A stretch of 42,650 nucleotides of DNA from an uncultured Muribaculaceae bacterium (GCA_964369245.1 CAYJEL010000002.1:1-42650); one strand, 5' to 3'; shown: positions 4,938 to 42,350, numbered from the stretch's first letter. Program-made: numbers and translations. The notes: a model not told the origin generated them from the sequence alone.

Positions 4938-6290
4938 ATGAAAGAAAAAGTTATACCACATAGTATAGAAGCAGAACAAGCTGTTTTAGGTTCAATGTTT
5001 CTAACTAAATATGCTCTTCAAAAAAGTATTGAATCATTACATGAATCATTATTTTATTTGGAAGCTCATAGTAAAATATTTACTATTATTAGAGATTTAT
5101 CTGAAGTAGGTGTTCCTATTGATGTTATGACTGTTTCTGAAGAACTTAAAAAAAGAAAATGGCTTAATGTTGTAGGTGGAATAGAAGCTTTAACTGAGAT
5201 TGCTTTAAGTGTTCCTACTGCAGCAAATGTTGATGAATATATAAAAATAGTCGAAGAAAAAGCTGTTTTAAGAAGATTAATAGATAAAGCTACTGATATA
5301 GCAACTAAAGCTTATAATTCAACTGGACAAATTAATGATACATTGGATTATGCTGAAACTGAAATTTTATCTGTTGTAAAAACTCGTAAGGGTTCTGAAT
5401 TTAAAACGATTCAAGATGTTTTATTTAAAGCACAATCTGATTTGGAGAAGCTATCTAAAAATAAAGGTTTAATTACTGGTATTCAAACTGGTTTTAGTAA
5501 GTTAGATAAGTTAACTTCGGGATTACATCCTAATGAGTTAATTATTTTAGCAGCTCGTCCCGGGATGGGGAAAACTGCTATTGCATTAAATTTAGCTACT
5601 AATATAGCTATTGATGATAAAAAAACTGTGGCTTTATTTAATATGGAGATGAGTGCGGAACAGTTAATTACTCGTATGTTAGCTCAAGTTGGTCAAATTC
5701 AAGGTAATAAATTAAAAAATGGTAGTTTACAGCACGATGATTGGCGTAGAGTTAATGAAGCTATTAGTAGGTTAGCAGAAACTAAAATGTATATTGATGA
5801 TACTGCTGGTATGACTATTAGTGAGATTAGAGCTAAATGTCGAAGACTTGCTTCTATGAAAGATGGAATTGATATTGTAATAATAGATTATTTACAGTTA
5901 ATTCAGGGTTCTGATCGTTATAAAGGTAACCGTGTTCAAGAGGTTACTGAAATTTCGAGATCGTTAAAAACTTTAGCTATGGAATTAAAAATTCCTGTTA
6001 TTGCTTTATCTCAGTTATCACGTAGTGTTGAAGGTAAAGGTAGAGCAGATAAAAGACCGATATTAAGTGACTTAAGAGAATCTGGTTCAATAGAACAGGA
6101 TGCCGATATAGTTGCAATGTTACATAGAGAAGATTATTATAACCGTGAATTATTGCAGGGTGATAATATATCTCGAGCTGAGCTTATTATAGCTAAACAC
6201 AGAAATGGGCCAGTTGATACAATACACTTAGCTTTTAAAACTGATACTAGTACATTTAATACTATTGATGAAATAGAAGGTGAAGAATGA
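4938..6290 (+). CDS. dnaB: Replicative DNA helicase
   Basis: DnaB N-terminal domain (IPHSIEAEQAVLGSM), Walker A ARPGMGKT and the IIDYLQL motif. Confidence 0.95.
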   Translation: MKEKVIPHSIEAEQAVLGSMFLTKYALQKSIESLHESLFYLEAHSKIFTIIRDLSEVGVPIDVMTVSEELKKRKWLNVVGGIEALTEIALSVPTAANVDEYIKIVEEKAVLRRLIDKATDIATKAYNSTGQINDTLDYAETEILSVVKTRKGSEFKTIQDVLFKAQSDLEKLSKNKGLITGIQTGFSKLDKLTSGLHPNELIILAARPGMGKTAIALNLATNIAIDDKKTVALFNMEMSAEQLITRMLAQVGQIQGNKLKNGSLQHDDWRRVNEAISRLAETKMYIDDTAGMTISEIRAKCRRLASMKDGIDIVIIDYLQLIQGSDRYKGNRVQEVTEISRSLKTLAMELKIPVIALSQLSRSVEGKGRADKRPILSDLRESGSIEQDADIVAMLHREDYYNRELLQGDNISRAELIIAKHRNGPVDTIHLAFKTDTSTFNTIDEIEGEE

Positions 6291-7861
6291 AAAAAAATAT
6301 AATTATTAGTTTATTTTTAGGACTTATGTTATTTTTTGTTAGTTTTGATTATGGTAAATCGTTATATCCTAATGAATTTTATAATGTTTTTTTAGATGAT
6401 AAACTACTTGGTACAATTTATTCGGAAGAGGAATTGTATAAATATATTGAAGAAAAAACTGATATATATGTAAATGCTGGAACAATTAGTAGAAATTTTT
6501 GTCCTATAGATGATGAAGCTTTGGAATTAATGGAAAATAATCCTTATGAAAAATATAAAAGTAATGGTGTTGATTGTGTTCGTATTGATTTGGAAGATGA
6601 AAGAAAAATTGAGGATGTTTATAATCCTGATGGTTTAACAGTTGAAAAGGTTTTAACTTATGATGTTGATTTATCTAATGTTGAAGAAGTTTATAACTCA
6701 ATGGTTGATATAAAATCATTTAATGTTAAGGGATATCAATTTATTATTCGTGATGAAGAAACTGATATGGTTATTAATGTTTTAGATAAAGATATATTTG
6801 AAACTTCTATTAATGAGATTATCCAAACTTATGTAGGTAGTAATGAATATGAAGCTTATTTAAGTGATAATCAAGTAAAAATAGAAGCTACAGGAAATAT
6901 GATAGAAAATGTTTATATTTCTGAAAACATAACTTTTATTGAAAAAAATATTGCTGTTTCGGAAAGAATTTTTATGGATTCTGATGCTTTATCTCAATAT
7001 TTATTATTTGGTGATAATCCGGTTACTTCAACTTATACAGTAAAAGAAAATGAAGAAGTAGAAACAATAGCTTTTAATAATAAAATATCTATTCAGGAAT
7101 TTTTGATATCAAATCCTAAGTATCAGGATGAGAATGCTTTAATAGGAACTGGAACTATTGTTCAAATTAAAGAAACTAGTCCTAAAATATCTGTTGTTAG
7201 TGAAGAGTTTGAAGTATTTGATAAAGTGAGTGAATATCAAACAGTATATCAATATGATGATACGCAATTGGTAACTTATATAGAAACTATTCAAGATGGT
7301 AGTGATGGATTAGAAAGAATTTCTCAGAGAGTTCAAAAAATAAATGGTAATATTACTTTCGTTGAGCCTGTTTCTAAAGAAGTTTTAAAAGCAACTGTTA
7401 ATGAAATTATTGTTAAAGGTGAAAAAGAAGTTCCTAATGTTGGGTATTTAGATACATGGGCTTGGCCTACTGCATCTGGATGGATTTTGACTCAAGATTA
7501 TGAGTGGAGAATTAATCCTTTATATGGCTATCGTGAATTCCATAGAGCTTTAGATATTGCTGGTACTGGTTATGGTTCTCCAATATATGCTATTAATAAT
7601 GGTACTATTATAACTAAAGAGTATCGTAGTGATTATGGGTATATGATTGTAATAGATCATAATAATGGTTATTATAGTTCTTATTCACATTTAAATGGTT
7701 ATGCTGCTAATATTAATTTAGGTGATACTGTTTCATATGGGCAATTAATTGCTTATATGGGAAGTACTGGATGGTCAACTGGTCCCCATTTACACTTTGA
7801 AGTATGGTATGGATGTGCTAGTAGTAGTAGTTGTCATATCAATCCGTGGTTGATATATTAA
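6287..7861 (+). CDS. Membrane-anchored M23 (LytM-type) peptidoglycan endopeptidase
   Basis: N-terminal TM segment and a C-terminal M23 domain with the canonical HRALDIAG ... SHLNG ... GPHLHFEVW motifs. ATGA overlap with dnaB. Confidence 0.85.
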   Translation: MKKNIIISLFLGLMLFFVSFDYGKSLYPNEFYNVFLDDKLLGTIYSEEELYKYIEEKTDIYVNAGTISRNFCPIDDEALELMENNPYEKYKSNGVDCVRIDLEDERKIEDVYNPDGLTVEKVLTYDVDLSNVEEVYNSMVDIKSFNVKGYQFIIRDEETDMVINVLDKDIFETSINEIIQTYVGSNEYEAYLSDNQVKIEATGNMIENVYISENITFIEKNIAVSERIFMDSDALSQYLLFGDNPVTSTYTVKENEEVETIAFNNKISIQEFLISNPKYQDENALIGTGTIVQIKETSPKISVVSEEFEVFDKVSEYQTVYQYDDTQLVTYIETIQDGSDGLERISQRVQKINGNITFVEPVSKEVLKATVNEIIVKGEKEVPNVGYLDTWAWPTASGWILTQDYEWRINPLYGYREFHRALDIAGTGYGSPIYAINNGTIITKEYRSDYGYMIVIDHNNGYYSSYSHLNGYAANINLGDTVSYGQLIAYMGSTGWSTGPHLHFEVWYGCASSSSCHINPWLIY

Positions 7862-19610: not shown

Positions 19611-20765
19611 ATGAAAAAAAATGGATTCACTTTAATAGAGCTTTTAGCAGTAATTATTATACTAGCTATTGTTGCTTTAATAGCAACTCCAATTATACTA
19701 AATGTAATAGAGGATTCAAGAAAATCGGCTAATAAATCACAGATTGAATTATTATTAGGAGGTTTGGAGCAATTATATGCAAGTAATATGCTAAGTGAAA
19801 ATTTAGAGTTAAGTGAAAAAATCAATAATGAAGAAGATGTTTACGATTTAATTCCGACAACAAATGAAAAACCGGCTAATGGTTTTGGAAAAATAAACAA
19901 TGAAGGAAAAGTAGCTATAGCAGTAGAAATAGACAGAGTATGCTATTCTAAAAACTTCGATGATAGTGAATTGAAGATTTATGAATTACTTGACGGAGAT
20001 AATTGTATATTGCCACCTGGTGTAGGAGAATATTTATATCAGTGTAGGTATTATCAATTTTGGAAAGATGAGGCAAATCCTGAAAGTGATTTTCTTTTTG
20101 ATAAATTAACGGGAAAAATTTTAAGCTATATAGGGACAGACACTGAAGTGATTATACCTTGTGAATATGATGGTGTTCCGGTTGAAGTTATAGGAAATCA
20201 TACTAATATCGGTGCTTTTTATGGTAAGAATGTTACTTCAGTAATTATACCGGATTCTATATATAAGATTGAAAATAGCGCTTTTAGAGAATCGAAGTTA
20301 ATAAGTATTATAATACCTAATAGTGTTACGACAATAGAACATAGTGCTTTTTATGGAATTGAAAGTTTGATTAATATAGATTTAGGAGATGGGGTAGAAT
20401 TTTTAGGGAATAGTTCTTTAGAAAAAACCTCTGTAGTTGAATTAACTTTACCAGCTTCTCTTAAAACATTAGAAGCTCAAGGTTGGATGGATGACTTAAA
20501 AATTTTAATTATTGAAGAGGGGAAGTTAACATATTTACCTAGAGATAGCTTTTGGATTTCTCCTAAAACTACTTATTATGAAAAAGTAGTAATTCCTTCT
20601 AATATTACTAGTATACATGAAGCAGCATTTAAAGAGATTAGTGATGGTTGGGGATTAAAGTCAGAAGTAATAGTTTTTACCAATTCTGATAAATTAAGAA
20701 ATGTTGAAGGAGATTTGGGAACTGATTGGTACTATGATGTGAAAAAGTTTGAATTTGAACCATAG
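19611..20765 (+). CDS. Prepilin-type N-terminal domain protein fused to BspA-type leucine-rich repeats (modular type IV pilin-like)
   Basis: MKKNG/FTLIELLAVIIILAIVALIATP is a class III signal peptide (G-1, E+5). The C-terminal half carries LRR_5-like repeats (IIPDSIYKIENSAFRES.., IIPNSVTTIEHSAFYG.., VIPSNITSIHEAAFKE). RBS AGAGGTG. Confidence 0.75.
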   Translation: MKKNGFTLIELLAVIIILAIVALIATPIILNVIEDSRKSANKSQIELLLGGLEQLYASNMLSENLELSEKINNEEDVYDLIPTTNEKPANGFGKINNEGKVAIAVEIDRVCYSKNFDDSELKIYELLDGDNCILPPGVGEYLYQCRYYQFWKDEANPESDFLFDKLTGKILSYIGTDTEVIIPCEYDGVPVEVIGNHTNIGAFYGKNVTSVIIPDSIYKIENSAFRESKLISIIIPNSVTTIEHSAFYGIESLINIDLGDGVEFLGNSSLEKTSVVELTLPASLKTLEAQGWMDDLKILIIEEGKLTYLPRDSFWISPKTTYYEKVVIPSNITSIHEAAFKEISDGWGLKSEVIVFTNSDKLRNVEGDLGTDWYYDVKKFEFEP

Positions 20766-29244: not shown

Positions 29245-30319
29245 ATGGAAAGTAATGAGATTATAAATATATATAATAATTATGATAAACGATTAAAAGA
29301 ACTTGGGAGGTTACTTTGAAGTTGATTTAAAAAATAGTCGAATTCTTGAGTTAGAAAATATTATTAATGATGTGTCATTTTGGTCTAATCAAGATAGGAA
29401 AGTTATCGATGAATTAAGTGATTTAAAAAGAACTTTATCAAATTATAAAAATTTAGAAAATAGTTTAGATTTAGAACTTTTAAATTATTTGGAAGATGAA
29501 GAGGTCAAAAGTTTATTAATTTCTGAGGTTTATGAGATTGAGAATAAAATCAATGAGTTAGAAATTGAAATTTTATTAAATGGTGAATATGATAAGGGTG
29601 ATGCTATTTTAGAAATTCATCCTGGAGCTGGTGGTACTGAAAGTTGTGACTGGGCTTTAATGTTATATCGTATGTATACTAGATGGTGTGAGGATAAAAA
29701 TTATAATTATGATATTTTGGATTATCAAAAAGGTGATGAGGCAGGAATCAAATCTGTATCTATTCTTGTTCATGGTATAAATTGTTTTGGATATTTAAAA
29801 AATGAAAAAGGTGTTCATAGGCTAGTTCGTATATCTCCTTTTGATTCTAATTCGAGAAGACACACTTCATTTGCTTCGGTTGAGGTTATACCGTATATTG
29901 ATAGTAAAACTGTTGTACTTGATATAAAAGATGTTGATTTAAAAATTGATGTTTATAGAAGTAGTGGTGCGGGAGGTCAAAGTGTTAATACGACTGATTC
30001 AGCTGTACGTATAACTCATTTACCAACAAAAACTGTTGTTACTTGTCAAAATGAAAGAAGTCAGATCAAAAATAAGGAAAAAGCAATGGAAATACTTTTA
30101 AATAAGTTATACTTATTGGAAGAAGAAAAAAAACAAAAAGAGTTGAATGATTTAAAAGGTGTTCAAACTGAAATTAATTTTGGTTCACAGATTAGAAGTT
30201 ATGTAATGCATCCTTATTCTATGGTTAAGGATCATCGTACTGGAGCTGAAACTAGTAATGTTTTAAAAGTATTAGATGGTGATATAGATTTATTTATAAA
30301 TAAAAGTTTGAAAGGTTAG
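29245..30319 (+). CDS. prfB: Peptide chain release factor 2 (programmed +1 frameshift at 29314-29320)
   Basis: Frame 0 runs ATG 29245 ... GGGAGG TTA CTT TGA, with the in-frame stop at 29317-29319. The +1 frame continues GAA GTT GAT... to 30319. The SD-like GGGAGG lies 3 nt before CTT. The RF2 SPF and GGQ motifs are present downstream. Confidence 0.9.
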
Positions 30320-30322
30320 TGT

Positions 30323-31183
30323 ATGAAGGTATTAAAAAAAGATGTTTTTAAAGTTGATAAACATAGTTTATTTGACTTTGCTATTTTATTGTTAGGTGCT
30401 ACTATAATGGCTTTGGCATTTAATATATTTTTTATAACAAATGAAATTGTTGTAGGTTTTAGTGGGTTGTCTGTAGTTGCTAATCAATTATGGGGAATAA
30501 AACCTTCAGTTTTTATGGCTTGTGGTTATGCTATATTAATAGTATTAAGTTTGATTATTCTAGGATGGAAATCAACCCGCAGATCAGTGATTGGAAGTAT
30601 TTTATATCCTTTATTGGTTGAAGTAACTTCTTATTTAGCAGCTTATATAGTATTCAAAGATGTTGAAGTAATTTTATTAGTTTTATTTGGGGCTGTTGCT
30701 ATGGGATTTGGTTCTGGGCTTGTTTATAAAGTTAATTATTCAACTGGGGGAAGTGATATTATAAATCAAATCATTTCTAAATTTATTAAAAGACCTATTG
30801 GTTATAGTATGATATTATCAAATTGTTTTATTATAAGTGTTGGTTTTTTCACATTTGGATTTAATTCAGTTATTTATTCTTTATTGGCTGTTTATGTTAT
30901 GAGTATAGTGGTTGACAAAGTTATGATAGGAATTTCTGAATCTAAGAATTTTAGAATTATTACTGAATGTGAAACTGAAGTTAAAAAGTTTTTAATTAGT
31001 AGTTTAAGTCATGGTGTAACTGTTACTGAAGGACGTGGTGGTTATACTGGTAATGTTGTTAAAATAATTATGTGTGTTATTCCTACTAAGGAATATATGG
31101 TGGTAAAAGAAGGTATATTGAAAATTGATAAAAATGCTTTAATTTTGGTATCTGATGTTTATGAAGTAGTTGGAAATAAATAA
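30323..31183 (+). CDS. YitT family membrane protein (DUF2179 C-terminal domain)
   Basis: Five or six TM segments plus the C-terminal GVTVTEGRGGYTG motif. Confidence 0.8.
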   Translation: MKVLKKDVFKVDKHSLFDFAILLLGATIMALAFNIFFITNEIVVGFSGLSVVANQLWGIKPSVFMACGYAILIVLSLIILGWKSTRRSVIGSILYPLLVEVTSYLAAYIVFKDVEVILLVLFGAVAMGFGSGLVYKVNYSTGGSDIINQIISKFIKRPIGYSMILSNCFIISVGFFTFGFNSVIYSLLAVYVMSIVVDKVMIGISESKNFRIITECETEVKKFLISSLSHGVTVTEGRGGYTGNVVKIIMCVIPTKEYMVVKEGILKIDKNALILVSDVYEVVGNK

Positions 31184-31196
31184 AAGGGGTGAGGAT

Positions 31197-31892
31197 ATGA
31201 GTTTAATTCAAGTTAAGAATGTTAAAAAGACTTATAAAACTGGTGTGACAGCAGTTCATGATATGAGTTTAAGTATAAATAAAGGAGAATTTGTTTTTAT
31301 AATTGGTTCCACTGGATGTGGTAAATCAACTTTAATAAAAATGTTATATCGTGAGGAAAAACCTACATCTGGAATTATTAATATTGGAGGAATCAATGTT
31401 GGTAAATTAAGAAATTCTAAAGTATTTAAGATAAGAAGAAAAATTGGAGTAGTGTTTCAAGATTTTAAATTATTATCTAAGTCAACTGCTTATGAGAATG
31501 TAGCTTTTGCTTTAGAGATATTTGGTTTACCTAAATCGGAAATACATGCTAAAGTTGTAAAAGCGCTAGATTTGGTAGGTCTTAAAAATAAATCGAAAAG
31601 TTATCCAAATCAACTATCTGGTGGTGAACAACAAAGGGTTGCGATAGCAAGAGCAATTGTAAATGGACCAAAATTATTAATATGTGATGAGCCTACAGGT
31701 AACTTAGATGAAAATACTAGTATGGAAATAATGAAGGTTTTGGATGAAATTAGTAAATTGGGAACAACAATTATAATGGTTACTCATGATAAGGATATTG
31801 TTAATAAAATGAAAAAAAGAGTTATTTTATTAGATTCTGGACGTATTGTTAAGGATTTTTCAGAAGGGGAGTATAGCAATGAAAGTATTTAG
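31197..31892 (+). CDS. ftsE: Cell division ATP-binding protein FtsE
   Basis: Walker A GSTGCGKST, signature LSGGEQQRVAIARA and Walker B LLICDEPTGNLD. The ATG at 31197 follows RBS AAGGGGTGAGGA. Confidence 0.92.
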   Translation: MSLIQVKNVKKTYKTGVTAVHDMSLSINKGEFVFIIGSTGCGKSTLIKMLYREEKPTSGIINIGGINVGKLRNSKVFKIRRKIGVVFQDFKLLSKSTAYENVAFALEIFGLPKSEIHAKVVKALDLVGLKNKSKSYPNQLSGGEQQRVAIARAIVNGPKLLICDEPTGNLDENTSMEIMKVLDEISKLGTTIIMVTHDKDIVNKMKKRVILLDSGRIVKDFSEGEYSNESI

Positions 31893-32781
31893 GATTTTAT
31901 TTAGAAATATAAGAGATTCTTTCAAAAGTATTTTTAGGAATTTTTCATTGTCTTTAGCTTCGTTAATTAGTATTATAATTACTTTATTAGTTGTTGCATT
32001 ATCAATTATTTTATCTTTAAATATAAATAATTTTACTAGAGAAGTTGAAAAAGATTTAACTATTGTTGTTTTTTTAGATGCTGATGTTAGTTTAGAAAGA
32101 ATAGATGAAATAGATGATGAGATTAAATTATTAAATAATATTTCTAGTTATGAATTTATTGATAAAATGCAAGTTCGTGATGAAATGATGGCTAGTAGTG
32201 AAGCTTATGAAAGTTTATTAGCTAAGTATGAAACAAGAGAAGAAAATCCTTTATCTGATTCTTATAATGTTAAAGTTGTTGATGTTAATAGTTTAGAAAG
32301 TGTTGCTTTAGAATTAATGGAAATTGATGATGTTATAAGTGTTAAATATGGAGAGGGATTAATTGAACAACTTATTTCTGTATTTACTACTATCAGAACT
32401 GTTAGTTTATGGGTTGTTGTTTCATTAGTAGCAGTTACAGCATTTTTAATTACTAATACTATTAAAATAACTATTTTTTCAAGAAAAAGGGAAATTGAAA
32501 TTATGCGTTTAGTTGGTGCTTCTAATATAAATATTAAAATTCCATTTATTTTAGAAGGTTTATTTATTGGTTTATTTGGATCTATTATTCCAATAATAGC
32601 TACAATAATTGGTTATGAAAAATTTTATGTAGCATTTAGTCTACAAGATATTTCACCTTTTATAAAATTGTTAGAACCAATGCCATTTTCTTTAATGGTA
32701 TCAGGAATATTACTAGTTATAGGAGTATTTGTTGGTATGATTGGATCATGGTTAGCGGTAAGAAAACACTTAAAAGTTTAG
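31879..32781 (+). CDS. ftsX: Cell division permease-like protein FtsX
   Basis: TM1, a ~110-aa extracellular loop domain, then three C-terminal TM segments. Overlaps ftsE by 14 nt. Confidence 0.88.
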   Translation: MKVFRILFRNIRDSFKSIFRNFSLSLASLISIIITLLVVALSIILSLNINNFTREVEKDLTIVVFLDADVSLERIDEIDDEIKLLNNISSYEFIDKMQVRDEMMASSEAYESLLAKYETREENPLSDSYNVKVVDVNSLESVALELMEIDDVISVKYGEGLIEQLISVFTTIRTVSLWVVVSLVAVTAFLITNTIKITIFSRKREIEIMRLVGASNINIKIPFILEGLFIGLFGSIIPIIATIIGYEKFYVAFSLQDISPFIKLLEPMPFSLMVSGILLVIGVFVGMIGSWLAVRKHLKV

Positions 32782-32793
32782 GAGAGTGATTTT

Positions 32794-34044
32794 ATGGATA
32801 TTTGTAATAATCCAGATGTTTTATCTATATTTTATATTATTACAACGTTTGTTGAAATAGCTATGTTTGCAGCACCTGTTATTTTAATTATTTTGATTAT
32901 GATTGATTTAATTAAAGGTATAGCAGGTGATCCTGATAAAATGAAAAGTACTAGAAAAAATATCATAACTAGAATTATAGCTGTTGTTATTTTGTTATTA
33001 GTACCTTTAACTATTGAGTTTTCACAAGGTTTAATGGGAGAAACAGAATTAGAGTATTTACAATGTTTTACGAATGCTAATATAGATGAGATAAATGATA
33101 TTAGATATTCACAAGCAGAGGAAGCTTTAGCTTTAGCGGAAAGTAAACAAACTAGATATTATTATGATGCGGCTTCTTTATTGGTAGCTAAAATAACTGA
33201 TAGTGATGATAAGGATGATTTTACTAATCGTTTGGAAACTTTAAATAATATTATCACTTCTATTGAACAAGGTAAATTAAAACCTTTCACATCTGAAGAT
33301 TTAATTTTTGGTAATACTGGAAATGTTGGTGGAACTGGTAGTTTAACTGTTTCTGGTTATTATACTGATGGTAAAGCTTCTGGGTGTACTGGTGGAGGAG
33401 CTTTGTATACCAAACAACCAGATCCTGCGATAGCAATTAATTATTGGGATGAACAAGGTTTACTTGATGCGTCTGATTTTATTTATCCGGAAGCAACGGA
33501 TGGGACATCTTTAGGAGCTTGGCCAGCTAATTTTAGAGAAATACCTGAACAACTTACAAATATGACTTTTTATAATGGAAATATTATTTGGCCGGTTGAA
33601 CCTTTAAATGGTATAGTTGCAGGTAATTATGGTCATAATGGACCTGAATATGGTTATGATATTACCACTGAAATGGGAGCACCAGTATATGCGCCTGCAT
33701 CCGGAACTCTAGTTTACTCAGAATGGGGAAATACAACTTATAGGAGGTGTCAAGATACAGCTTATTCAGTAAGGATTGAACTTGATACTCCTGTACAAAT
33801 CGATGATGTTTATGTTGAATATATTTTTATAACTCATTTAATGGGAATTGTACAACATTGTCCAAGAAGTACTTGTGAAACTCAAGTAAAAGTAGGTCAA
33901 TTAATCGGATTTGCTGGACATGCAAATGAGCCACATTTACATTTAACTTTTTATGATAAAAATATAAAACGCGGTGTGAATAGTGACTTTTTTGACACTT
34001 TTTATAATACTGATCAAGGTCTTGAAAAAGGAGTTGGTCAATAA
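32794..34044 (+). CDS. Membrane-anchored M23/LytM-domain peptidase paralog 1 (2-TM hairpin, helical stalk, M23 domain)
   Basis: Two N-terminal TM helices flank a K/R-rich loop, followed by a helical region. The C-terminal M23 motifs are HNGPEYGYD, GAPVYAPASG, FITHLMG and PHLHLTFY. Starts 12 nt after ftsX. Confidence 0.8.
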   Translation: MDICNNPDVLSIFYIITTFVEIAMFAAPVILIILIMIDLIKGIAGDPDKMKSTRKNIITRIIAVVILLLVPLTIEFSQGLMGETELEYLQCFTNANIDEINDIRYSQAEEALALAESKQTRYYYDAASLLVAKITDSDDKDDFTNRLETLNNIITSIEQGKLKPFTSEDLIFGNTGNVGGTGSLTVSGYYTDGKASGCTGGGALYTKQPDPAIAINYWDEQGLLDASDFIYPEATDGTSLGAWPANFREIPEQLTNMTFYNGNIIWPVEPLNGIVAGNYGHNGPEYGYDITTEMGAPVYAPASGTLVYSEWGNTTYRRCQDTAYSVRIELDTPVQIDDVYVEYIFITHLMGIVQHCPRSTCETQVKVGQLIGFAGHANEPHLHLTFYDKNIKRGVNSDFFDTFYNTDQGLEKGVGQ

Positions 34045-34712
34045 TGGATAAAAAAATTAAATTAATGTTGATAGTGTTAGGTGTATTTGTTGTAATAGTT
34101 TTATCTTTGTCTTTTATTGGTTCTCTTTATAATAGAGATGTTAAATATTATAAAAATATTTCTGATATAGTTATTGGAATGTATAGAAGTCCTGAGTATG
34201 ATAATTCTGGTATTTCAAAAGAAGATAAAAAGTATTTAGAAAGTTACTTAGCAACATTAACTCATGAAAATCATATTGTTGATTTAAGTAAGTTTATGGA
34301 AGGTGCGGATAGTACTAGTGCTTCTAATTCTCCTAATGTTTTTATAGAAAATAATAAGTGTTTTATAAAATATGATGATTTAAATTTTGTATATGAATAT
34401 AACGATGAAGAAGATTTCGAACAAGGACATAATCATGGAACTTCTGATCAGTTAATAATACTTAATTGTATGGGCAAAGAGCTTTTGATTAATAATTATG
34501 ACTTTTATCCTGAGTATAATGAGACTTTAGAAAATCCGTTGTATGATTACAATTTTATTGGTTATACTGAAGAAGATAATATATTTAATTCTTTTTATAG
34601 ATCAATTTATAACGGTTCTACTGTTATATTAGAAATTAAGTTAAATAATAATGATATTGAAAGTATAGAAGTTAGGCCTGTAAATATTAATAATTATGAA
34701 ATAATAAATTAA
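34044..34712 (+). CDS. Partner protein 1: N-terminally anchored extracytoplasmic protein of unrecognised family
   Basis: TAATG overlap with paralog 1. One N-terminal TM. Motifs shared with the other two partners: YYKNIS, YL.TLTHEN, PEY.ETLENP..DY..IGY and FYRSIY. Confidence 0.75.
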   Translation: MDKKIKLMLIVLGVFVVIVLSLSFIGSLYNRDVKYYKNISDIVIGMYRSPEYDNSGISKEDKKYLESYLATLTHENHIVDLSKFMEGADSTSASNSPNVFIENNKCFIKYDDLNFVYEYNDEEDFEQGHNHGTSDQLIILNCMGKELLINNYDFYPEYNETLENPLYDYNFIGYTEEDNIFNSFYRSIYNGSTVILEIKLNNNDIESIEVRPVNINNYEIIN

Positions 34713-34723
34713 GGAGTGTGTTT

Positions 34724-35983
34724 ATGGAAATCTGTAATAATCCAGATGTTTTATCTATATTTTATATAATTACAACGTTTGTTGAAATAGCTATGTTTGC
34801 AGCACCTGTTATTTTAATTATTTTGATTATGATTGATTTAATTAAAGGTATAGCAGGTGATCCTGATAAAATGAAAAGTACTAGAAAGAATATTATAACT
34901 AGAATTATAGCGGTTGTAATATTGTTGTTAGTACCATTAACTATTGAGTTCTCGCAGAATTTAATGGGAGAAACAGAATTAGAGTATTTACAATGTTTTA
35001 CGAATGCGAATATAGATGAGATAAATGATATTAGATATTCACTAGCAGAGGAAGCTTTATCTTTAGCTGAAAGTAAACAAACGAGATATTATTATGATGC
35101 TGCTTCTTTATTAGTAGCTAAAATAACTGATAGTGATGATAAGGATGATTTTACTAATCGTTTGGAAACTTTAAATAATATTATAACTTCTATTGAAAAT
35201 GATAAGTTGAAGCCTTTTACTTCTGAAGATTTAATTTTTGGTAATACTGGTAATGTCGGTGGTGAAGGTAGTTTAGATGTTGTGGGTTATGGAAGTGATG
35301 GTAAAGATTATGGTTGTACTAGTGGTGGACAATTAAGTTCTGAACCTGATCCGTCACAAGTTATTAATTACTGGGATAGTAAAGGAATGTTAGATGCAGA
35401 TGATTATATTTACCCAGCTGTTAATGGAGAGCTTTATGGTGCATGGCCTGCAAATTATAAAGAATATCCATCACAATTAACTAATGTTAAAACATATAAT
35501 GGTTTAAGTTATCCAATAACTTCTGATTATCATGGTACAGAAGGGAAGTACCAATTCGTATATCAACACAATGGAATTGATTTTATGTCTTCAATTGGAA
35601 CACCTGTTTATTCACCAGTTGATGGTACTTTAGAATACTCTGAGTGGGGACATACAACATATCGTGGGTGTGATGAAAATGCTTATTCTATTACTATTAA
35701 TATGGATGAATCTGTAACTTTTAATGGCTATACTTTTGATACGGTGTTTTTAACTCATTTAAGTGGAATAGTTTTTAGATGTTCAAGAAATGAGTGTAAT
35801 CAAGAAATTAAAGCTGGTCAATTGATTGGATTTGTTGGTAATGCTGTTGGTGGTTTTGGAGGTTATGCTCCACATTTACATATGACTTTATATGGTGGAA
35901 GTTATAGTTCTGGGTTGAAATCTACTGTTATTGAAAATTTATATGATATAACTTCTGGTGATATTAGGATGGCTGGTGAATAA
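34724..35983 (+). CDS. Membrane-anchored M23/LytM-domain peptidase paralog 2
   Basis: The N-terminal ~178 aa are nearly identical to paralog 1. The divergent M23 domain has the canonical HNGID, then GTPVYSPVDG, LTHLSG and PHLHMTLY. The ATG at 34724 lies 7 nt after AAGGAG. Confidence 0.8.
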   Translation: MEICNNPDVLSIFYIITTFVEIAMFAAPVILIILIMIDLIKGIAGDPDKMKSTRKNIITRIIAVVILLLVPLTIEFSQNLMGETELEYLQCFTNANIDEINDIRYSLAEEALSLAESKQTRYYYDAASLLVAKITDSDDKDDFTNRLETLNNIITSIENDKLKPFTSEDLIFGNTGNVGGEGSLDVVGYGSDGKDYGCTSGGQLSSEPDPSQVINYWDSKGMLDADDYIYPAVNGELYGAWPANYKEYPSQLTNVKTYNGLSYPITSDYHGTEGKYQFVYQHNGIDFMSSIGTPVYSPVDGTLEYSEWGHTTYRGCDENAYSITINMDESVTFNGYTFDTVFLTHLSGIVFRCSRNECNQEIKAGQLIGFVGNAVGGFGGYAPHLHMTLYGGSYSSGLKSTVIENLYDITSGDIRMAGE

Positions 35984-36624
35984 TGGAAAAAAATATTAAA
36001 AGACTTTTAATTGCGTTTGGTATTGTTGTTTTAATATTAGTTATTTTGTTATTGTTAAATTTTGTTTACAAAAGAGATGAAAAGTATTATAAAAATATAT
36101 CTGAGGTAGTTATTTCATTATTTGATAGTAGTGATTATTCTACATCAGGTATCAATAAAAGTGATATTATTAAAATAGATGAGTATTTATCAACTTTAAC
36201 ACATGAAAATGAGTTAGTTAATTTAAATAAGTTTATTGATGATAATACTGATTATAATAAAAATTGGAATAATTCAGAGGGAGTTATTGTTGAGAATAAT
36301 GTGTGTTATATTTATTATGGTGATATTGATTTTAAGTTGATAGAAGATGTGACAGTAGAAAATTCAGCTGTTATATATTGTGATGGTTATCAAATTAAAA
36401 TTTATGAAGATAGCTTTATGCCAGAATATTCGGAAACTTTAGAAAATCCTGTTCATGATTATGTTTATATTGGATATAATTTTACTTTAGATAATTACAT
36501 TGGTTTTTATCGTTCTATATATGATGGTAGTGAGATTGGTGTTTTTATTAATTTAAGTGATACTGAAATAGATGTTATTGAAGTTAATGGTGTTAATTTT
36601 AATGATTATAATATTATAAAATAA
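35983..36624 (+). CDS. Partner protein 2
   Basis: TAATG overlap with paralog 2. Same architecture and motifs as partners 1 and 3, but it is the most divergent of the three. Confidence 0.75.
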   Translation: MEKNIKRLLIAFGIVVLILVILLLLNFVYKRDEKYYKNISEVVISLFDSSDYSTSGINKSDIIKIDEYLSTLTHENELVNLNKFIDDNTDYNKNWNNSEGVIVENNVCYIYYGDIDFKLIEDVTVENSAVIYCDGYQIKIYEDSFMPEYSETLENPVHDYVYIGYNFTLDNYIGFYRSIYDGSEIGVFINLSDTEIDVIEVNGVNFNDYNIIK

Positions 36625-36635
36625 GGGGTGTATGT

Positions 36636-37973
36636 ATGAGTATTTGTTCTGATCCAGATGTGTTATCAATATTTTATATCATAACAGCATTTGTTAATAT
36701 TGCTATGTTTGTAGCTCCTGTTTTATTAATTGTTTTAACTATGGTTGATTTAATAAAAGGTATTAGTGGTGATGAAAGCAAGTTAAAAAATATTAGAAAA
36801 TCTATAATTACTAGAATTGTAGCTTTAGTAATTTTATTGTTAGTTCCTTTAACAATTGAATTTTCTCAAGGCTTAATGGGGGATAATGAATTAGAATATT
36901 TGAAGTGTTTTACTGATGCTAATGCTGATGACATAGGTGATATAAGATATGATTTAGCTGAAGATGCTTTATTGGATGCTGAATTAAAGCAAAATAGATA
37001 TTATTATGATAAAGCATCATTATTAGTAGCTAAAGTTACTGATAAAGATGATAAAGAAGAATTGGAAGAAAGATTAGATGAGTTAGATAATATTATAACT
37101 CAAATTGAACAAGGTAAATTACCTCAAATTACTACTGATGATTTAGCTTTTGATGGTTTGGGAGCTCCTTCTAAGCATTATTCTAATTTAGCTAATAAAA
37201 ATGCTGCTGTTTGTGTAGCTGGAACTGAATATGAATATGCTCCACAGCCTGATTTAGCTTTAAATTTTTGGGAAGGTGGAAAAAGCGTTACTGAATGGCA
37301 TGGAGATGCATGGGTAGTTGATTCTGAAGACTATTATTATCCTGCTACAGCTCAAGGTGTTTCTTTAGGAGCATGGCCTAAAATTGATGATTATCCTTTA
37401 CAGTTGGAAAATCCTAAAATTTATTTTGATAATTTCATTTGGCCTGTTGATACTGCTGGAGGTTATAGTGGGAATTATGTTCATAATGGACCTGAATATG
37501 GTATGGATATTTTGACTTATATGGGAACTCCAGTATATGCTCCTGCTAGTGGAGTTTTGGAATATTCTGAATATGGTCATACTGGTCTTATTGATTGTCA
37601 AGATACAGCTTATAGTGTTAGAATTAGATTAGATGAACCTGTACGATTTAATGGAGTAGTTGATCCAAATCCTAATAATGAAACTTATGATCCACCGGTA
37701 AATGTTGATATTGAGGTAATATTTATTACACATTTAATGGGTATTCGTTATTATTGTCCTGAGGATAGTTGTTATATGCGTGTTGAAGCTGGTGAGTTGA
37801 TTGGATTTAGTGGAACTGCGGGAGGAATTAGTTCTGAAACAGGTAAACCACGATTTGCACCACATTTACATATGACTTTTTATGATGATATTATCGTTAA
37901 TGGGGTAGCTAGTTTTGATTTTAATCATATTTATAGCATTGATGAGGGCGATAAAAGAATGGCTGGTGAATAA
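36636..37973 (+). CDS. Membrane-anchored M23/LytM-domain peptidase paralog 3
   Basis: Same architecture. The N-terminal module is roughly 75% identical to paralogs 1 and 2. The M23 core is closest to paralog 1 (HNGPEYGMD, GTPVYAPASG, CQDTAYSVRI, FITHLMG, PHLHMTFY). Confidence 0.8.
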   Translation: MSICSDPDVLSIFYIITAFVNIAMFVAPVLLIVLTMVDLIKGISGDESKLKNIRKSIITRIVALVILLLVPLTIEFSQGLMGDNELEYLKCFTDANADDIGDIRYDLAEDALLDAELKQNRYYYDKASLLVAKVTDKDDKEELEERLDELDNIITQIEQGKLPQITTDDLAFDGLGAPSKHYSNLANKNAAVCVAGTEYEYAPQPDLALNFWEGGKSVTEWHGDAWVVDSEDYYYPATAQGVSLGAWPKIDDYPLQLENPKIYFDNFIWPVDTAGGYSGNYVHNGPEYGMDILTYMGTPVYAPASGVLEYSEYGHTGLIDCQDTAYSVRIRLDEPVRFNGVVDPNPNNETYDPPVNVDIEVIFITHLMGIRYYCPEDSCYMRVEAGELIGFSGTAGGISSETGKPRFAPHLHMTFYDDIIVNGVASFDFNHIYSIDEGDKRMAGE

Positions 37974-38620
37974 TGAAAAAGAAAGTTATTATAGGTGGTA
38001 TATCTTTTATTGTAGTAATGTTTTTAATTATTAGTATTAATAACATTTTAAAAAGAGATGTGAATTATTATACTAATATAAGTGATGTTGTAATAAGTAT
38101 GTATAGAAGTCCTGATTATGACAAAAGTGGAATATCTAAAGAAGATAAATTATACTTAGATAAATATTTATCAACTTTGACTCATGAAAATCATGTTGTT
38201 GATTTAACTGAATTTATTGATTATTCAAAAAATACTTCTAAAGCAAATTCAGATTATGTTTTTGTTGAAGATGGAGTTTGTAAAATTGATTATAACAATT
38301 TAGATTTGGTTAATGAAACGTATAAAAATGATTCTCTCCATGAAACTACTGATAAGATAATTGTTCTATATTGTAATGGTAAGGTAATATATATTGATAA
38401 TTTTGTTTTTGAACCTGATTATGAGATAACTAAAAATAATCCTTTTTATGATTATGCTTATGTAGGTTATGCTGAGGAAGGTAGTAGTTTTTTAGGTTTT
38501 TATCGTTCTTTATATGATTTTAGTACGGTGAGAGTTAAAATAGATGTTGATTATGATGGTAATATTGAGAATATAGATGTAAAACCTGTAGATTTTTATG
38601 ATTATGAAATTATTAAATGA
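37973..38620 (+). CDS. Partner protein 3
   Basis: TAATG overlap with paralog 3. Closest to partner 1 (MYRSP.YD.SGISKEDK.YL..YL.TLTHENH.VDL). Confidence 0.75.
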   Translation: MKKKVIIGGISFIVVMFLIISINNILKRDVNYYTNISDVVISMYRSPDYDKSGISKEDKLYLDKYLSTLTHENHVVDLTEFIDYSKNTSKANSDYVFVEDGVCKIDYNNLDLVNETYKNDSLHETTDKIIVLYCNGKVIYIDNFVFEPDYEITKNNPFYDYAYVGYAEEGSSFLGFYRSLYDFSTVRVKIDVDYDGNIENIDVKPVDFYDYEIIK

Positions 38621-38680: not shown

Positions 38681-38709
38681 ATGACAAGCAAAAAAATGTT
38701 TGCTATAAT
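38681..38709 (+). promoter_or_regulatory. Putative promoter of recG
   Basis: ATGACA (38681-38686), a 17-nt spacer ending in TGc, then TATAAT (38704-38709), i.e. an extended -10. Confidence 0.45.
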
Positions 38710-38729: not shown

Positions 38730-40661
38730 ATGGAAATAGAAAAAGTGAAAAGTGTTGGTCCTAAAATGTTGAATGAACTAAAAAAATTAGGTATTAATAA
38801 TAGTGATGAATTAATTAATTATTATCCTTATAAATATAATTATATATCTAATACTGGTTTAGTAGATAATGAAATGTGCGTAGTGGAAGGTATTGTAATT
38901 AGGGACTCTGTGGTAAGATATTTGAAAAATAGAAGAGAAATGATGGAGTTTACAGTTGAAGTAGATAATGTTTTTGTTAAATGTATTATATATAATAGGG
39001 GTTATTTAAAAGATAAAATTAAAATTGGATCTGCACTTACATTAATTGGTAAATATACAAGAAAAGATAATAAATTAATGGTTAATGAGCTTAGGTTTGA
39101 AAGTTTAGGAAACAAAACTATAATTGAACCTTGTTATCACGCAACTAAATCTTTAACTTCAAATAAAATAAATAGTTTAATTAATAGTTTAGGATTTTTG
39201 TGTGAAGATGTAATACCTCATGAATTAATTTGTAAATATAATTTTATTTCTAGAAGTAATGCTTTACAGGAAATACATAATCCAACTACTAAGTTAAATA
39301 AAGCTATTGAGCATTTAAAATATGAAGAATTATTTTTGTTTATGTTAAAAATAAATTATTTAAAATCTAAAAGACATGATAAAGGGTTAAAAAGAGATGT
39401 TGATTTTAAGTTTATTGATGAATTTATAAATACTTTACCATTTACTTTAACTGTTGATCAGATTAGTTGTGTTGATGAAATATATAAAGATTTAACTAAT
39501 GAAAAAAGAATGAATAGGTTATTACAGGGAGATGTTGGGAGTGGTAAAACTATTGTATCTTTTATAGCTTTATATATTAATTATTTAAGTGGTTATCAAG
39601 GGGCTTTAATGGCTCCGACTGAAATTTTAGCTTTACAACATTTTGAAAATTTTAAGAAGTTATTTCCTAATATAAGAGTTTGTTTGTTAACTGGGAAAAT
39701 TAGTAGTAAAGTAAAAGTACATAATATGATTAAAAGTGGTGAATATGATGTTATTATTGGAACACATGCTTTAACTAGTGAGAAGGTTAGTTATAATAAT
39801 TTGGGATTAGTTATTACTGATGAGCAACATCGGTTTGGAGTTAATCAAAGAAGTGTTTTTAGAAATAAAGGTATTAAACCAGATATTTTATATATGAGTG
39901 CAACTCCAATACCTAGAACATATGCTATTACGTTATTTGGTGATATGGATATTTCAGTTATTAAAACAAAACCTAGTGGTCGAAAAGAAATTATTTCTGT
40001 TTTGAAAAATTCTAAAACAATTAAGGATGTTTTGCAAATTATGTATGAGCAAATAAAAAAGGGTCATCAGGTTTATGTTATAGCACCTTTAATTGAAGAA
40101 AGTGATAAAATTGAGTTAGAAAATGTTGAAGGTTTAAAAAATAAGTTAACATTAGCTTTTGGGAAGATTTGTAAAATTGGTGTTATGCATGGAAAGTTAT
40201 CTAATAAAGAAAAAGAAGAAGTTATGGATAAGTTTTTGAAAAATGAATTTCAAATTTTAATTTCTACAACTGTTATAGAAGTTGGAGTTGATGTTAAAAA
40301 TGCCACTTGTTTGGTTGTTTTTGATAGTAATCGTTTTGGTTTATCAACTTTACATCAATTAAGAGGAAGAATAGGTAGAAATGATTTACAATCATATTTT
40401 GTAATGATAAGTGATAATGAAACAGAAAGATTAAATATTATGACAAAAACTAATGATGGTTTTGAAATTAGTAATCATGATTTAGATTTAAGAGGTAGTG
40501 GTGATTTATTTGGGATAAGACAAAGTGGGGATATGCAGTTTAAGTTGGCTGATTTAAAAAAGGATTTCAAATTGCTAGAACAGGCAAAAATTGATAGTTT
40601 AAATTATATTAATGATGTTAATATAAAAAAATTACTTAGTGATGTAAGTAATTTAGATTAA
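38730..40661 (+). CDS. recG: ATP-dependent DNA helicase RecG
   Basis: N-terminal wedge/OB region, Walker A GDVGSGKT, DEQH box (TDEQHRFG), SATPIPRT and QLRGRIGRN. Confidence 0.92.
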   Translation: MEIEKVKSVGPKMLNELKKLGINNSDELINYYPYKYNYISNTGLVDNEMCVVEGIVIRDSVVRYLKNRREMMEFTVEVDNVFVKCIIYNRGYLKDKIKIGSALTLIGKYTRKDNKLMVNELRFESLGNKTIIEPCYHATKSLTSNKINSLINSLGFLCEDVIPHELICKYNFISRSNALQEIHNPTTKLNKAIEHLKYEELFLFMLKINYLKSKRHDKGLKRDVDFKFIDEFINTLPFTLTVDQISCVDEIYKDLTNEKRMNRLLQGDVGSGKTIVSFIALYINYLSGYQGALMAPTEILALQHFENFKKLFPNIRVCLLTGKISSKVKVHNMIKSGEYDVIIGTHALTSEKVSYNNLGLVITDEQHRFGVNQRSVFRNKGIKPDILYMSATPIPRTYAITLFGDMDISVIKTKPSGRKEIISVLKNSKTIKDVLQIMYEQIKKGHQVYVIAPLIEESDKIELENVEGLKNKLTLAFGKICKIGVMHGKLSNKEKEEVMDKFLKNEFQILISTTVIEVGVDVKNATCLVVFDSNRFGLSTLHQLRGRIGRNDLQSYFVMISDNETERLNIMTKTNDGFEISNHDLDLRGSGDLFGIRQSGDMQFKLADLKKDFKLLEQAKIDSLNYINDVNIKKLLSDVSNLD

Positions 40662-40698: not shown

Positions 40699-40782
40699 TG
40701 CGTAGGATCTACGCTTGAATTTATCACGATATAAATGTGATTTAATTCAACCCCCAGATGTGGAGCTTTTAGCTCCTTTTTT
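40699..40782 (+). ncRNA. Candidate small RNA (~85 nt, three hairpins, unpaired C5 tract)
   Basis: Lies between the promoter above and the terminator below. Hairpin 1 is GCGTAG-gat-CTACGC (40700-40714). Hairpin 2 is TTGAAT..ATCAC-gatataaat-GTGAT..ATTCAA (40715-40750). A single-stranded CCCCC follows (40751-40755), then the terminator hairpin. There is no ORF and no downstream + strand gene. Confidence 0.4.
40762..40782 (+). terminator. Intrinsic terminator
   Basis: GGAGCT-ttt-AGCTCC followed by T6. The T-run overlaps the stop codon of the convergent - strand gene. Confidence 0.65.
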
Positions 40783-41602
40783 ATTTGATAAAAGAATCAA
40801 AGTCTTCTAGGGTATCTATGGTATTTGGATTTTTAAAGAAACGGTGAATTTTTTCAGATTTCTTTGAAGTTTTTTTAATATCGCTCGTTAGTAGTTTAGT
40901 TATTTTTAATTCATTAATATAATAGTTTATTTTTTCTTTGCATATTTCAATTAAATTTGCTTCTTGTTTTGATATTTCTTTTTTTTGTTGGGTAATATAT
41001 ATATAATCTAATAATCTTATAATTTCAGTTGTATTAAAAATGTTTTGATATTTATCCAATTCTTGTATTAATGTTTTTAAATCGCATGAAAAAAATAGTT
41101 GTTGCATTAAGTTTATTCCAATTATAAATTCTAGCTTTCTTGTTATATCTTTAAAATAGTTTTTTTCTTCTTTTTTAAAAACGTGTTGTTCGATTAAACT
41201 TTTATATCCATAGGTTAATGCTTGTCCTATATTTTCATTATTCTTTTGGGTAAATCCTTCAAAGTCTTTATAATTATAGTTCATTTCAATCATTTCTCTG
41301 ATTAAAGTAGGTTTTTGTTTTTGTTTTTCTAAGTTGTAATCTAAAATTTCATAAGATATTGTTGGAAATTTGTATGAAATATGGTTTTTAAATACTTCAT
41401 AATTTTTATCACTTATTGTTTTTGTAATGGTAGGTTTATTTTGTATTTTTAAAGTTGCTTTTGTCTTAGTTTTAAAATCTTTGTTAATTTTATATTTGTT
41501 TAATATTTTTTTGCTTATATTTGTAATTGTATATAGGCCTATGCAAGTTGTACTTAAGATGATTACTGAGTTTTCATATGATAAAAAATCCTTAATAGTC
41601 AT
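40781..41602 (-). CDS. Hypothetical protein (273 aa, one N-terminal TM)
   Basis: Long ORF with a strong RBS (AAGGAGA 7 nt upstream on the - strand). Lys-rich. No recognisable motif. Confidence 0.6.
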   Translation of the reverse strand: MTIKDFLSYENSVIILSTTCIGLYTITNISKKILNKYKINKDFKTKTKATLKIQNKPTITKTISDKNYEVFKNHISYKFPTISYEILDYNLEKQKQKPTLIREMIEMNYNYKDFEGFTQKNNENIGQALTYGYKSLIEQHVFKKEEKNYFKDITRKLEFIIGINLMQQLFFSCDLKTLIQELDKYQNIFNTTEIIRLLDYIYITQQKKEISKQEANLIEICKEKINYYINELKITKLLTSDIKKTSKKSEKIHRFFKNPNTIDTLEDFDSFIK

Positions 41603-41828
41603 AGTGTCTCCTTTTTTTAAATATATTATAATGTATATTTTTTTTTATTGCAAGTTTGAATTTGACAAATTACAATAAATATTATAAAATAGTGTCTATG
41701 TGAGGAGATATAAGCATTTTGTGAGCTATCTCGGGATAAATTCCTACACGATTATTCAAAGTCGGAGTCACTTAGTTTTAAGAGAATCAGACTTTTTTTT
41801 GAGCAATAAAAATAGAAGGGAATGTTAT

Positions 41829-42350
41829 ATGGAAAATATTTATTATGAAAAATATAAAAAGAAAATTGCTGATTATAAATGTCATAATAAGGGTGAATTA
41901 TTTATTGATTCTCCATTATTAGCTAATTTTTATAATTATAATGAAATTAGCGCATCTGTTAATGAAAAATTAATGTATAGTACTTTGAAGTATTTACATG
42001 AAAAAGGTTTTTTATTACAAAGGTTGGGAACACATTTATATGCTAGGTTAATTAATAATATTATTAGTAATTTTAATAGTTATTTAGATACTGAATCTTT
42101 TCTTTCTGATATTATAGTTAACTATAGTGATCCTTATTCAGATAAATTTAGGGAATTTGCTAGAGATGATGAAGAGGTAGGGATAACTTCTTTTCACACT
42201 CTAATTTGTGCTGGATATAAAGGTGAGGGCGAATTATTTTTACCTAATGAAATAGTTAAAGATATTTCAGAATTATTACCTTATTATATAAAAAATGGTT
42301 TGGATATGAGTAAAAGTGAAAGTAGTAAAACTTTAGCTAAAATTGGTTAA
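41829..42350 (+). CDS. Hypothetical protein (173 aa)
   Basis: The ATG at 41829 lies 8 nt after a GAAGGG RBS. The upstream GTG at 41700 offered by the ORF track has no RBS and lies in a probable leader. Confidence 0.55.
   Translation: MENIYYEKYKKKIADYKCHNKGELFIDSPLLANFYNYNEISASVNEKLMYSTLKYLHEKGFLLQRLGTHLYARLINNIISNFNSYLDTESFLSDIIVNYSDPYSDKFREFARDDEEVGITSFHTLICAGYKGEGELFLPNEIVKDISELLPYYIKNGLDMSKSESSKTLAKIG

Follow-up and report, generated by a model that had tools for sequence, protein, structure and literature searches.

Several described systems come close to the locus reported here. M23 peptidases of the LytM/lysostaphin type, including the membrane-anchored MepM, ShyA-C and LytU, carry the PF01551 domain, are extracytoplasmic and occur as several paralogues per genome. 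In the FtsEX modules with EnvC, PcsB, CwlO or RipC, a hydrolase with a helical N-terminal region is encoded directly 3' of ftsEX. The VirB2-like pilins of PF18895, from the type IV secretion systems (T4SS) of monoderm bacteria and Patescibacteria, are two-helix hairpins with a positively charged cytoplasmic loop, and arrays of divergent pilins of this kind are known from Patescibacteria (PMC12102498). The present locus is a tandem array of three cassettes (32794-34712, 34724-36624 and 36636-38620) on the plus strand of a stretch of DNA of 42,650 nucleotides, labelled as an uncultured Muribaculaceae bacterium (GCA_964369245.1, CAYJEL010000002.1:1-42650), which is called the window throughout. 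Each cassette consists of a gene for an M23-type enzyme (E1, E2 and E3) followed by a gene for a smaller partner protein (P1, P2 and P3).

Non-reciprocal gene conversion or unequal crossover has taken place within this array, a conclusion we hold with high confidence. A wider reading, which joins this recombination to endopeptidases acting on the cell's own wall and to a partner serving such enzymes in general, is judged rather probable as a whole.

Recombination between the first two cassettes

E1 (416 residues, 32794-34044) and E2 (419 residues, 34724-35983) share one architecture: from the N-terminus, a pilin-like two-helix hairpin, a helical region, a Gly-rich linker, a middle region and the M23 domain. 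The part up to the linker is referred to here as the N-module. Over 32794-33345 and 34724-35275, the two genes differ at 37 of 552 nucleotides (93.3% identity), with 33 differences in the first 539 (6.1%). A preliminary description of this DNA, made from the sequence alone, had counted about 34 differences in some 540 positions (~94% identity), and that estimate holds on either count. The N-module proteins differ at 7 of 184 residues, or at 6 of 172, which is the number given earlier, and the changes are mostly synonymous, as had also been stated: by the method of Nei and Gojobori, applied per region and gene pair, synonymous divergence (dS) is 0.26 and nonsynonymous divergence (dN) 0.02. The longest identical run is 119 nucleotides (permutation P = 0.007), marginally shorter than the stretch of more than 120 reported before, and this non-random block hints at more than one conversion event.

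The similarity between E1 and E2 starts at the ribosome-binding site, ~10 nucleotides 5' of the start codon, and ends at a single sharp breakpoint. In the breakpoint test proposed in the preliminary description, run here as a maximum chi-squared scan, the break falls at codon 180, the last of the linker GNTGNVGG (residues 173-180, 33310-33333 in E1), that is at 33333 in E1 and 35263 in E2; the statistic there is 191, and the largest value in 300 permutations is 18.6. The rate of difference is 6.1% to the left of codon 180 and 40.7% to the right, so that uniform divergence along the two genes, named beforehand as the outcome contrary to recombination, is excluded. Past the linker the two are identical at 47.7% of protein positions, within the 40-50% estimated by eye, and at 60% of nucleotides. 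From the alignment and the breakpoint scan, the converted tract comprises the ribosome-binding site and codons 1-180 of each gene (32784-33333 in copy 1 and 34714-35263 in copy 2, plus strand), with 94% nucleotide identity between the two.

The third enzyme, E3 (445 residues, 36636-37973), provides the measure for this tract. Its linker is not the GNTGNVGG of E1 and E2, and in the N-module it shares 69-70% of protein positions with them (74% of nucleotides), somewhat below the ~75% protein identity first given. In the N-module, dS is 0.83 and dN 0.23 for E1 and E3, and 0.93 and 0.24 for E2 and E3. The near-identity of the E1 and E2 N-modules cannot come from constraint alone, because their dS of 0.26 stands against 0.83-0.93 in the pairs with E3. 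Past the linker, dS is ~0.8 or more in every pair, near saturation for a genome whose G+C content at third codon positions (GC3) is near 0.12, and dN of the catalytic and partner parts is 0.32-0.54.

The N-module and the M23 domain also have different rooted histories. Neighbour-joining trees of the N-module, with 18-19 taxa, join E1 and E2 at 97% bootstrap support, whereas those of the M23 region, with 7, 8 or 19 taxa, join E1 and E3 at 100%. Identities in the M23 region are 56-58% for E1 and E3, 45-46% for E2 and E3 and 41-42% for E1 and E2, and the closeness of copy 3 to copy 1 in this domain had been recognised correctly. Informative sites, scored with outgroups, give 4-8 for 12|3 and none for 13|2 or 23|1 in the N-module; in the M23 domain they give 2-4 for 12|3, 9-12 for 13|2 and 0-2 for 23|1. 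The two patterns differ by Fisher's test at P = 0.0007-0.03, varying with the outgroup. The histories truly conflict, and a single bifurcating history cannot fit them. A bounded tract of low dS is thus combined with a conflicting rooted topology outside it, the pattern by which gene conversion is recognised. On both of its central claims, incongruent histories of the segments and recombination or gene conversion at the linker, the preliminary description is supported by the separate trees and site patterns, the breakpoint and the dS contrast. It had also read the C-terminal tail GD.RMAGE as a link between copies 2 and 3. The tail is present in both, but relatives elsewhere end in ..RKAGE, ..IKAGG, ..KAGG or ..KAGE; it is therefore ancestral and was lost in E1, and does not amount to a third incongruent history.

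A further character common to E1 and E3 lies in the zinc site. In both, four residues are inserted into the HxxxD zinc motif, which thus reads HNGPEYG[YM]D (HNGPEYGYD at 33634-33660 in E1, HNGPEYGMD at 37482-37508 in E3), whereas 17 of 20 relatives have H-x-G-x-D, among them E2 (HNGID at 35567-35581). In the Pfam alignment, Glu285 of E1 and Glu287 of E3 occupy the position that in E2 holds the first zinc-ligand His; the first motif is altered, and HxH and THL are kept in both proteins (THL at 33832-33840 and PHLH at 33931-33942 in E1, PHLH at 37860-37871 in E3). In E2 the HxxxD motif, the THL His and HxH are all present and align to lysostaphin (THL at 35753-35761, PHLH at 35870-35881). The only other insertion among the 20 relatives is in the same spot of an unrelated protein (L092:1479-2750) with a different sequence, HSLPDGGID. 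The insertion is a rare, derived trait common to E1 and E3, and its independent counterpart suggests a recurrent variant of the M23 metal site. The altered site in E1 and E3 may have changed metal use or specificity, or may have cost the two enzymes their catalysis. In terms of profile scores, E1 (33.3 bits) and E2 (37.4 bits) pass the curated PF01551 cut-off of 28.7 bits; E3, with a partial match of 28.5 bits, is just under it, although its homology to E1 (58% identity) is clear.

Compared between organisms, the N-module is less well conserved than the M23 domain, with 25-35% identity to other family members. Within this genome the relation is reversed, and the N-modules of E1-E3, at 69-97%, are much the more alike. 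The M23 domains are 42-56% identical among E1-E3 and 35-56% identical to those of other family members, and the M23 domain of E2 is nearer to several foreign ones (56, 55 and 54%) than to those of E1 or E3. In the N-module the three form a clade with 100% bootstrap support. The N-module pattern fits repeated homogenisation of all three copies, with copy 3 escaping the last round, and it also fits a need within the cell for three N-modules that are alike; with synonymous sites saturated, there is no choice between the two.

The N-module family and the partner proteins

In E1, hydropathy marks two segments (residues ~8-47 and ~54-82) as predicted membrane helices. On inspection of the sequence, the loop of the hairpin is positively charged and its flanks are acidic, so that both ends of the hairpin are predicted to lie outside the cell. 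The helical region after the hairpin reaches about residue 160, as judged from secondary structure in an AlphaFold2 model of E1 that is otherwise too poor for use (four-sequence alignment, mean predicted local distance difference test (pLDDT) score of 43).

Beyond the window, word-indexed protein searches returned one relative of the M23 domain (P0004), one of the partner (P0008) and none of the N-module. An exhaustive profile search, by comparison, places the N-module in a family that, at E ≤ 0.001, numbers at least 1688 clusters (clustered at 50% identity). Among the top 145 proteins, Pfam finds Peptidase_M23 in 24, Peptidase_C39_2 in 14, Lipase_GDSL_2 (GDSL) in 9, M15_4 or VanY in 7, NlpC/P60 in 5 and CHAP in 5, together with several esterases, NAGPA, one glucosaminidase and one GDPD, which makes at least ten different C-terminal Pfam families. 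Some short stand-alone N-module matches are fragments at contig ends (P0020, for example), and their count is not relied on. Against PDB sequences the N-module profile gave nothing or transmembrane noise, no relatives of the enzymes or partners were found on viral contigs, and no description of this architecture was found in the literature. The N-module proteins are a previously undescribed family.

Homology of the N-module to the T4SS_pilin family (PF18895) is plausible through intermediates only. The proteins of the window score 19.7-20.4 bits (E1 20.3), or up to 22.8 when outgroups are counted, below the cut-off of 26.6, whereas two relatives are above it (L003N, described below, at 33.0 and P0021 at 26.9), and 25 of the 145 family members match at an E of 0.001 or better. 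Four residues, Cys4, Cys91, Pro28 and Pro71 in E1 numbering, are nearly invariant in the 145 proteins. Both cysteines are predicted to lie outside, and a disulfide between them that would tie the N-terminus to the segment after helix 2 is plausible.

The partners P1 (222 residues, 34044-34712), P2 (213 residues, 35983-36624) and P3 (215 residues, 37973-38620) are open reading frames on the plus strand, and the start of each overlaps the stop of its enzyme gene (TAATG in the case of P1). They are predicted to consist of an N-terminal membrane anchor and an outward-facing domain of ~190 residues; their relatives are lipoproteins with an extra C-terminal anchor. No match to the partner was found in Pfam, NCBIfam, PHROG or PDB sequences. 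An AlphaFold2 model (pLDDT 72.7, medium confidence) gave no significant structural match against the PDB (best Foldseek E-value 0.067, TM-scores 0.2 or lower); NTF2-like and LolA-like matches were weak and are not counted as evidence.

When metagenome contigs were scanned with an alignment of the partners, five loci emerged, L083 to L087, of which L083 and L084 are identical in sequence, leaving four distinct ones; each holds one cassette of the same architecture as in the window. At one of these (L085:10755-15759), four tandem paralogues of ~400 residues lie 3' of the single cassette. The partner family is not confined to M23 enzymes. It is encoded directly 3' of N-module-Peptidase_C39_2 fusions (L088, E = 6e-55; L095, E = 2e-31), of an N-module-NlpC/P60 fusion (L091, E = 2e-29) and of further N-module-M23 fusions (L091 and L092, E = 1e-55). 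Another organism has a two-cassette array after ftsK, M23 first and then NlpC/P60, each with a partner homologue (L091:3173-6744 and L092:1479-6744); in L092 a transposase of the IS110 family lies between the cassettes. The partner of a C39-type enzyme from a sister metagenome-assembled genome (MAG) groups with P1-P3 at 95%. No partner is detectable 3' of the M15_4 (L093), GDSL (L089) or GDPD (L097) fusions. Nor is one detectable (hhalign probabilities 1.7% and 17%) beside P0004, which is encoded on a short contig (L001) and has an M23 domain of the E subfamily, 52-56% identical to E2, behind a dockerin-like N-terminus in place of the N-module.

Among the partners, P1 and P3 have the highest identity (48%, against 44% for P1 and P2 and 44-45% for P2 and P3), and to this extent the earlier grouping of partner 3 with partner 1 stands. 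The tree does not carry it further: (P1,P3) is joined in 47% of bootstrap replicates when the outgroups are distant and in 76% when a nearer one is used, the quartet site counts come out nearly even, and the grouping amounts to no more than a tendency. From co-variation of each partner with its catalytic domain, the preliminary description had deduced a cognate pair of the enzyme-inhibitor or effector-immunity kind. That deduction was not sustained. Since the converted tract includes neither the partner nor the catalytic domain, plain linkage accounts for any history they share, and the same family stands beside M23, C39-like and NlpC/P60 enzymes and is absent beside P0004. One partner family across three peptidase families makes a fold-specific inhibitor or immunity protein unlikely; a factor for N-module endopeptidases in general fits better.

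Possible roles of the array

In the explanation proposed here, the three tandem paralogous cassettes would each pair a membrane-tethered peptidoglycan endopeptidase with a membrane-anchored extracytoplasmic partner. A segment of ~550 base pairs, which starts at the ribosome-binding site and stops where the linker ends, was copied between cassettes 1 and 2 well after their catalytic and partner parts had diverged; in these older parts, copies 1 and 3 have a derived catalytic core in common. The linker is a neutral junction of independently folding modules, so that hybrids survive and stay functional, as is seen from the swapping of C-terminal domains at the same junction across the family. The three enzymes would most likely be directed at the producing cell's own wall and differ, as paralogues, in specificity or in timing. 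We infer this own-wall role, with moderate confidence, from the predicted helices, the outward catalytic part and the genomic contexts: single-copy cassettes elsewhere sit after recX, ftsK, ksgA, rbfA or a XerC-like gene, all of them housekeeping contexts, and no secretion genes were found in the window or at about ten other loci. The partner would most likely be a regulator or helper of the N-module endopeptidases.

Several points weigh against this explanation: (i) three copies whose synonymous sites are saturated do not allow the events to be ordered or given a direction, and replacement of the 3' two-thirds of a cassette gives the same pattern as conversion of its 5' third; (ii) in the M23 region the clade of E1, E2 and E3 has a bootstrap of 5% (19 taxa), which leaves room for import of a catalytic-partner module; (iii) from codon 181 to ~255, E1 and E2 are 50-63% identical, E3 has indels of its own and quartet counts are ambiguous; (iv) the tandem diversified pairs, their dN of 0.39-0.54 and the family-wide polymorphic C-terminus also fit antagonism.

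The last point leads to the reading that survives best among the rivals, although we consider it unlikely: an effector-immunity array, in which the N-module would deliver or display M23 toxins engaged in an arms race, the partners would be cognate immunity proteins and the linker would be the site of shuffling. Tandem pairs of enzyme and partner genes, in which the stop of one overlaps the start of the other, have the look of such an array, as does a family whose N-terminus is constant and whose variable C-terminal hydrolases are of types that serve as antibacterial effectors. High dN in the catalytic and partner parts (0.32-0.54), a partner domain predicted to face outward beside the wall and a breakpoint exactly at the module junction point the same way. 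Each E protein is, however, predicted to be a two-pass membrane protein that stays in the producer, and neither the window nor the other loci, all in housekeeping contexts, offer a secretion system to carry it elsewhere. An immunity protein is also hard to reconcile with a single partner family that serves a metallopeptidase fold and two cysteine-peptidase folds, is absent beside a close M23 relative that has no N-module, and has a tree that does not clearly mirror that of the M23 domain. Most related organisms, moreover, have a single conserved cassette at a conserved position (L083, L086 and L087).

The position of the array brings in FtsEX. The helical N-modules could dock on the extracellular domain of FtsX and be kept alike for that reason, which would make the enzymes FtsEX-coupled division hydrolases; this is improbable. 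The array begins 12 nucleotides past ftsX with no terminator between, and it is the N-modules that are alike inside the genome (69-97%, against 25-35% outside) while the M23 domains are no more alike than between organisms. In the closest related genome, a complete stand-alone N-module gene of 152 codons (L003N, L003:10948-11406), without catalytic domain or partner gene, occupies the interval between ftsX and recG. Other genomes do not keep the adjacency of array and ftsX, however: recG follows closely on ftsX in 19 relatives, at about 100-140 base pairs in several, mostly within ~100-350 and at up to about 900 in L005, so that the array is a lineage-specific expansion at that site. Cassettes elsewhere follow the other genes named above, and the N-module is embedded in the membrane, unlike the soluble coiled coils of EnvC and PcsB.

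We give little credence to a more speculative proposal. The N-module-hydrolase-partner cassette might serve small-genome gut Bacilli as a previously undescribed weapon or attachment device on the cell surface that needs no secretion system: a VirB2-like hairpin would display interchangeable wall- and envelope-degrading domains to neighbouring cells, the partner would shield the producer, and recombination at the linker would move new enzyme-partner modules onto a lineage-specific display module. Finally, a pilus-like or T4SS-related structure, in which the VirB2-like N-module would polymerise or join an apparatus and carry the hydrolases outward for DNA transfer or attachment, the copies being variant pilins, is very improbable: its case is the relationship to PF18895 (L003N at 33.0 bits, 25 of 145 members matching) and the precedent of the Patescibacteria arrays, but the proteins of the window are under the cut-off, no VirB4, VirB6, VirD4/coupling protein or other T4SS gene was found in the 42.6-kb window or at loci L083-L097, and each subunit would bear a globular C-terminal extension of 240-270 residues, which is not a feature of the known VirB2 pilins.

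Genomic setting and comparison with known systems

The window has a G+C content of 25.8% and also carries lgt, whiA, dnaB, ftsH, ezrA, pgk, tpi, spo0A, spoIIR and yunB; it is core chromosome of a low-GC, spore-forming member of the Bacilli. With FtsX as query in a collection of species-representative genomes, the nearest relative (82% identical) is from an uncultured gut MAG, and further relatives come from MAGs labelled Bacilli, Tenericutes, Candidatus Faecisoma and Candidatus Fimihabitans. The gene order around the array is prfB, a YitT-like gene, ftsE (31170-31892), ftsX (31846-32781), E1/P1, E2/P2, E3/P3 and recG (38730-40661), with ftsE and ftsX assigned from their reading frames and translations and both, like recG, on the plus strand. 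The spacer is 12 nucleotides from the ftsX stop to the E1 start, then 11 and 11 between cassettes, and no terminator-like site was found between ftsX and P3. A promoter-like site ahead of recG (38681-38709) is the only strong one, in a scan whose total is no higher than for shuffled sequence.

Two trivial origins of the array were considered and rejected. Recent horizontal import disagrees with composition, since the GC3 of the cassettes (0.09-0.14) is the same as that of the flanking genes and the genome. An assembly artefact disagrees with the N-module differences, which are spread along the tract and mostly synonymous, and with six reading frames that are all intact and three downstream parts and junctions that are unique.

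Other features of the window stand apart from the array. In prfB (29246-30319) there is a classic +1 programmed frameshift: a short frame-0 reading frame stops at CTT TGA A (about 29313-29319), with a Shine-Dalgarno-like GGGAGG upstream of the site. A further M23 peptidase, unrelated and equipped with a G5 domain, is encoded at 6287-7861, directly 3' of dnaB. The product of 19611-20765 joins an N-terminal methylation motif like that of type IV pilins to leucine-rich repeats of the BspA type. Beyond recG, at 40781-42350, two reading frames of 273 and 216 codons lie on opposite strands, without Pfam match.

The recombination itself is textbook; its value here is that of a clean, well-bounded conversion stopping at a domain junction. 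More useful is the unnamed family from uncultured low-GC gut Bacilli, in which a pilin-like hairpin carries interchangeable envelope hydrolases; those of its members that are endopeptidases, at the least, are accompanied by an extracytoplasmic partner that is conserved and uncharacterised. Should this partner indeed be a general regulator, it would represent a new control of wall hydrolysis in bacteria without the usual wall-binding modules. The motif of E1 and E3, with Glu for His after the insertion, offers a testable M23 enzyme with changed metal coordination or lost activity.

Compared with known systems, the array resembles cases of gene conversion in tandem paralogues and polymorphic toxin loci in having a sharp, near-identical tract in old paralogues with its boundary at a domain junction, and in that a variable downstream part travels with an adjacent small gene. 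Unlike these, it has no orphan or truncated modules and no secretion apparatus, its constant module is a membrane hairpin and not a known trafficking domain, and its adjacent gene is of one family whatever the catalytic fold. With the M23 enzymes it shares PF01551, the motifs seen in E2, the extracytoplasmic location and the several paralogues; it differs in an anchor made of a two-helix hairpin and helical stalk, where a single helix, LysM or SH3b is usual, in the insertion with Glu at the first zinc-ligand column of E1 and E3, and in the dedicated downstream partner gene. The hydrolase gene directly 3' of ftsEX and the helical N-terminal region recall the FtsEX modules, but here the adjacency is specific to one genome, the N-module is membrane-embedded, and those modules have no counterpart of the partner, bar a loose analogy to SweC and SweD. 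As in the PF18895 pilins, there is a two-helix hairpin with a positive loop in tandem divergent copies, and profile matches across the family range from weak to significant; T4SS genes nearby and a signal peptide are lacking, the C-terminal domains are large and enzymatic, and the nearly invariant Cys4-Cys91 pair is a feature of the N-module family alone in this comparison. For the partner, no sequence similarity or significant fold similarity was found to GerS-CwlD, IseA or NlpI-MepS, and the likeness to these systems is one of arrangement: a small membrane-anchored extracytoplasmic protein that is encoded beside a hydrolase or acts on it.

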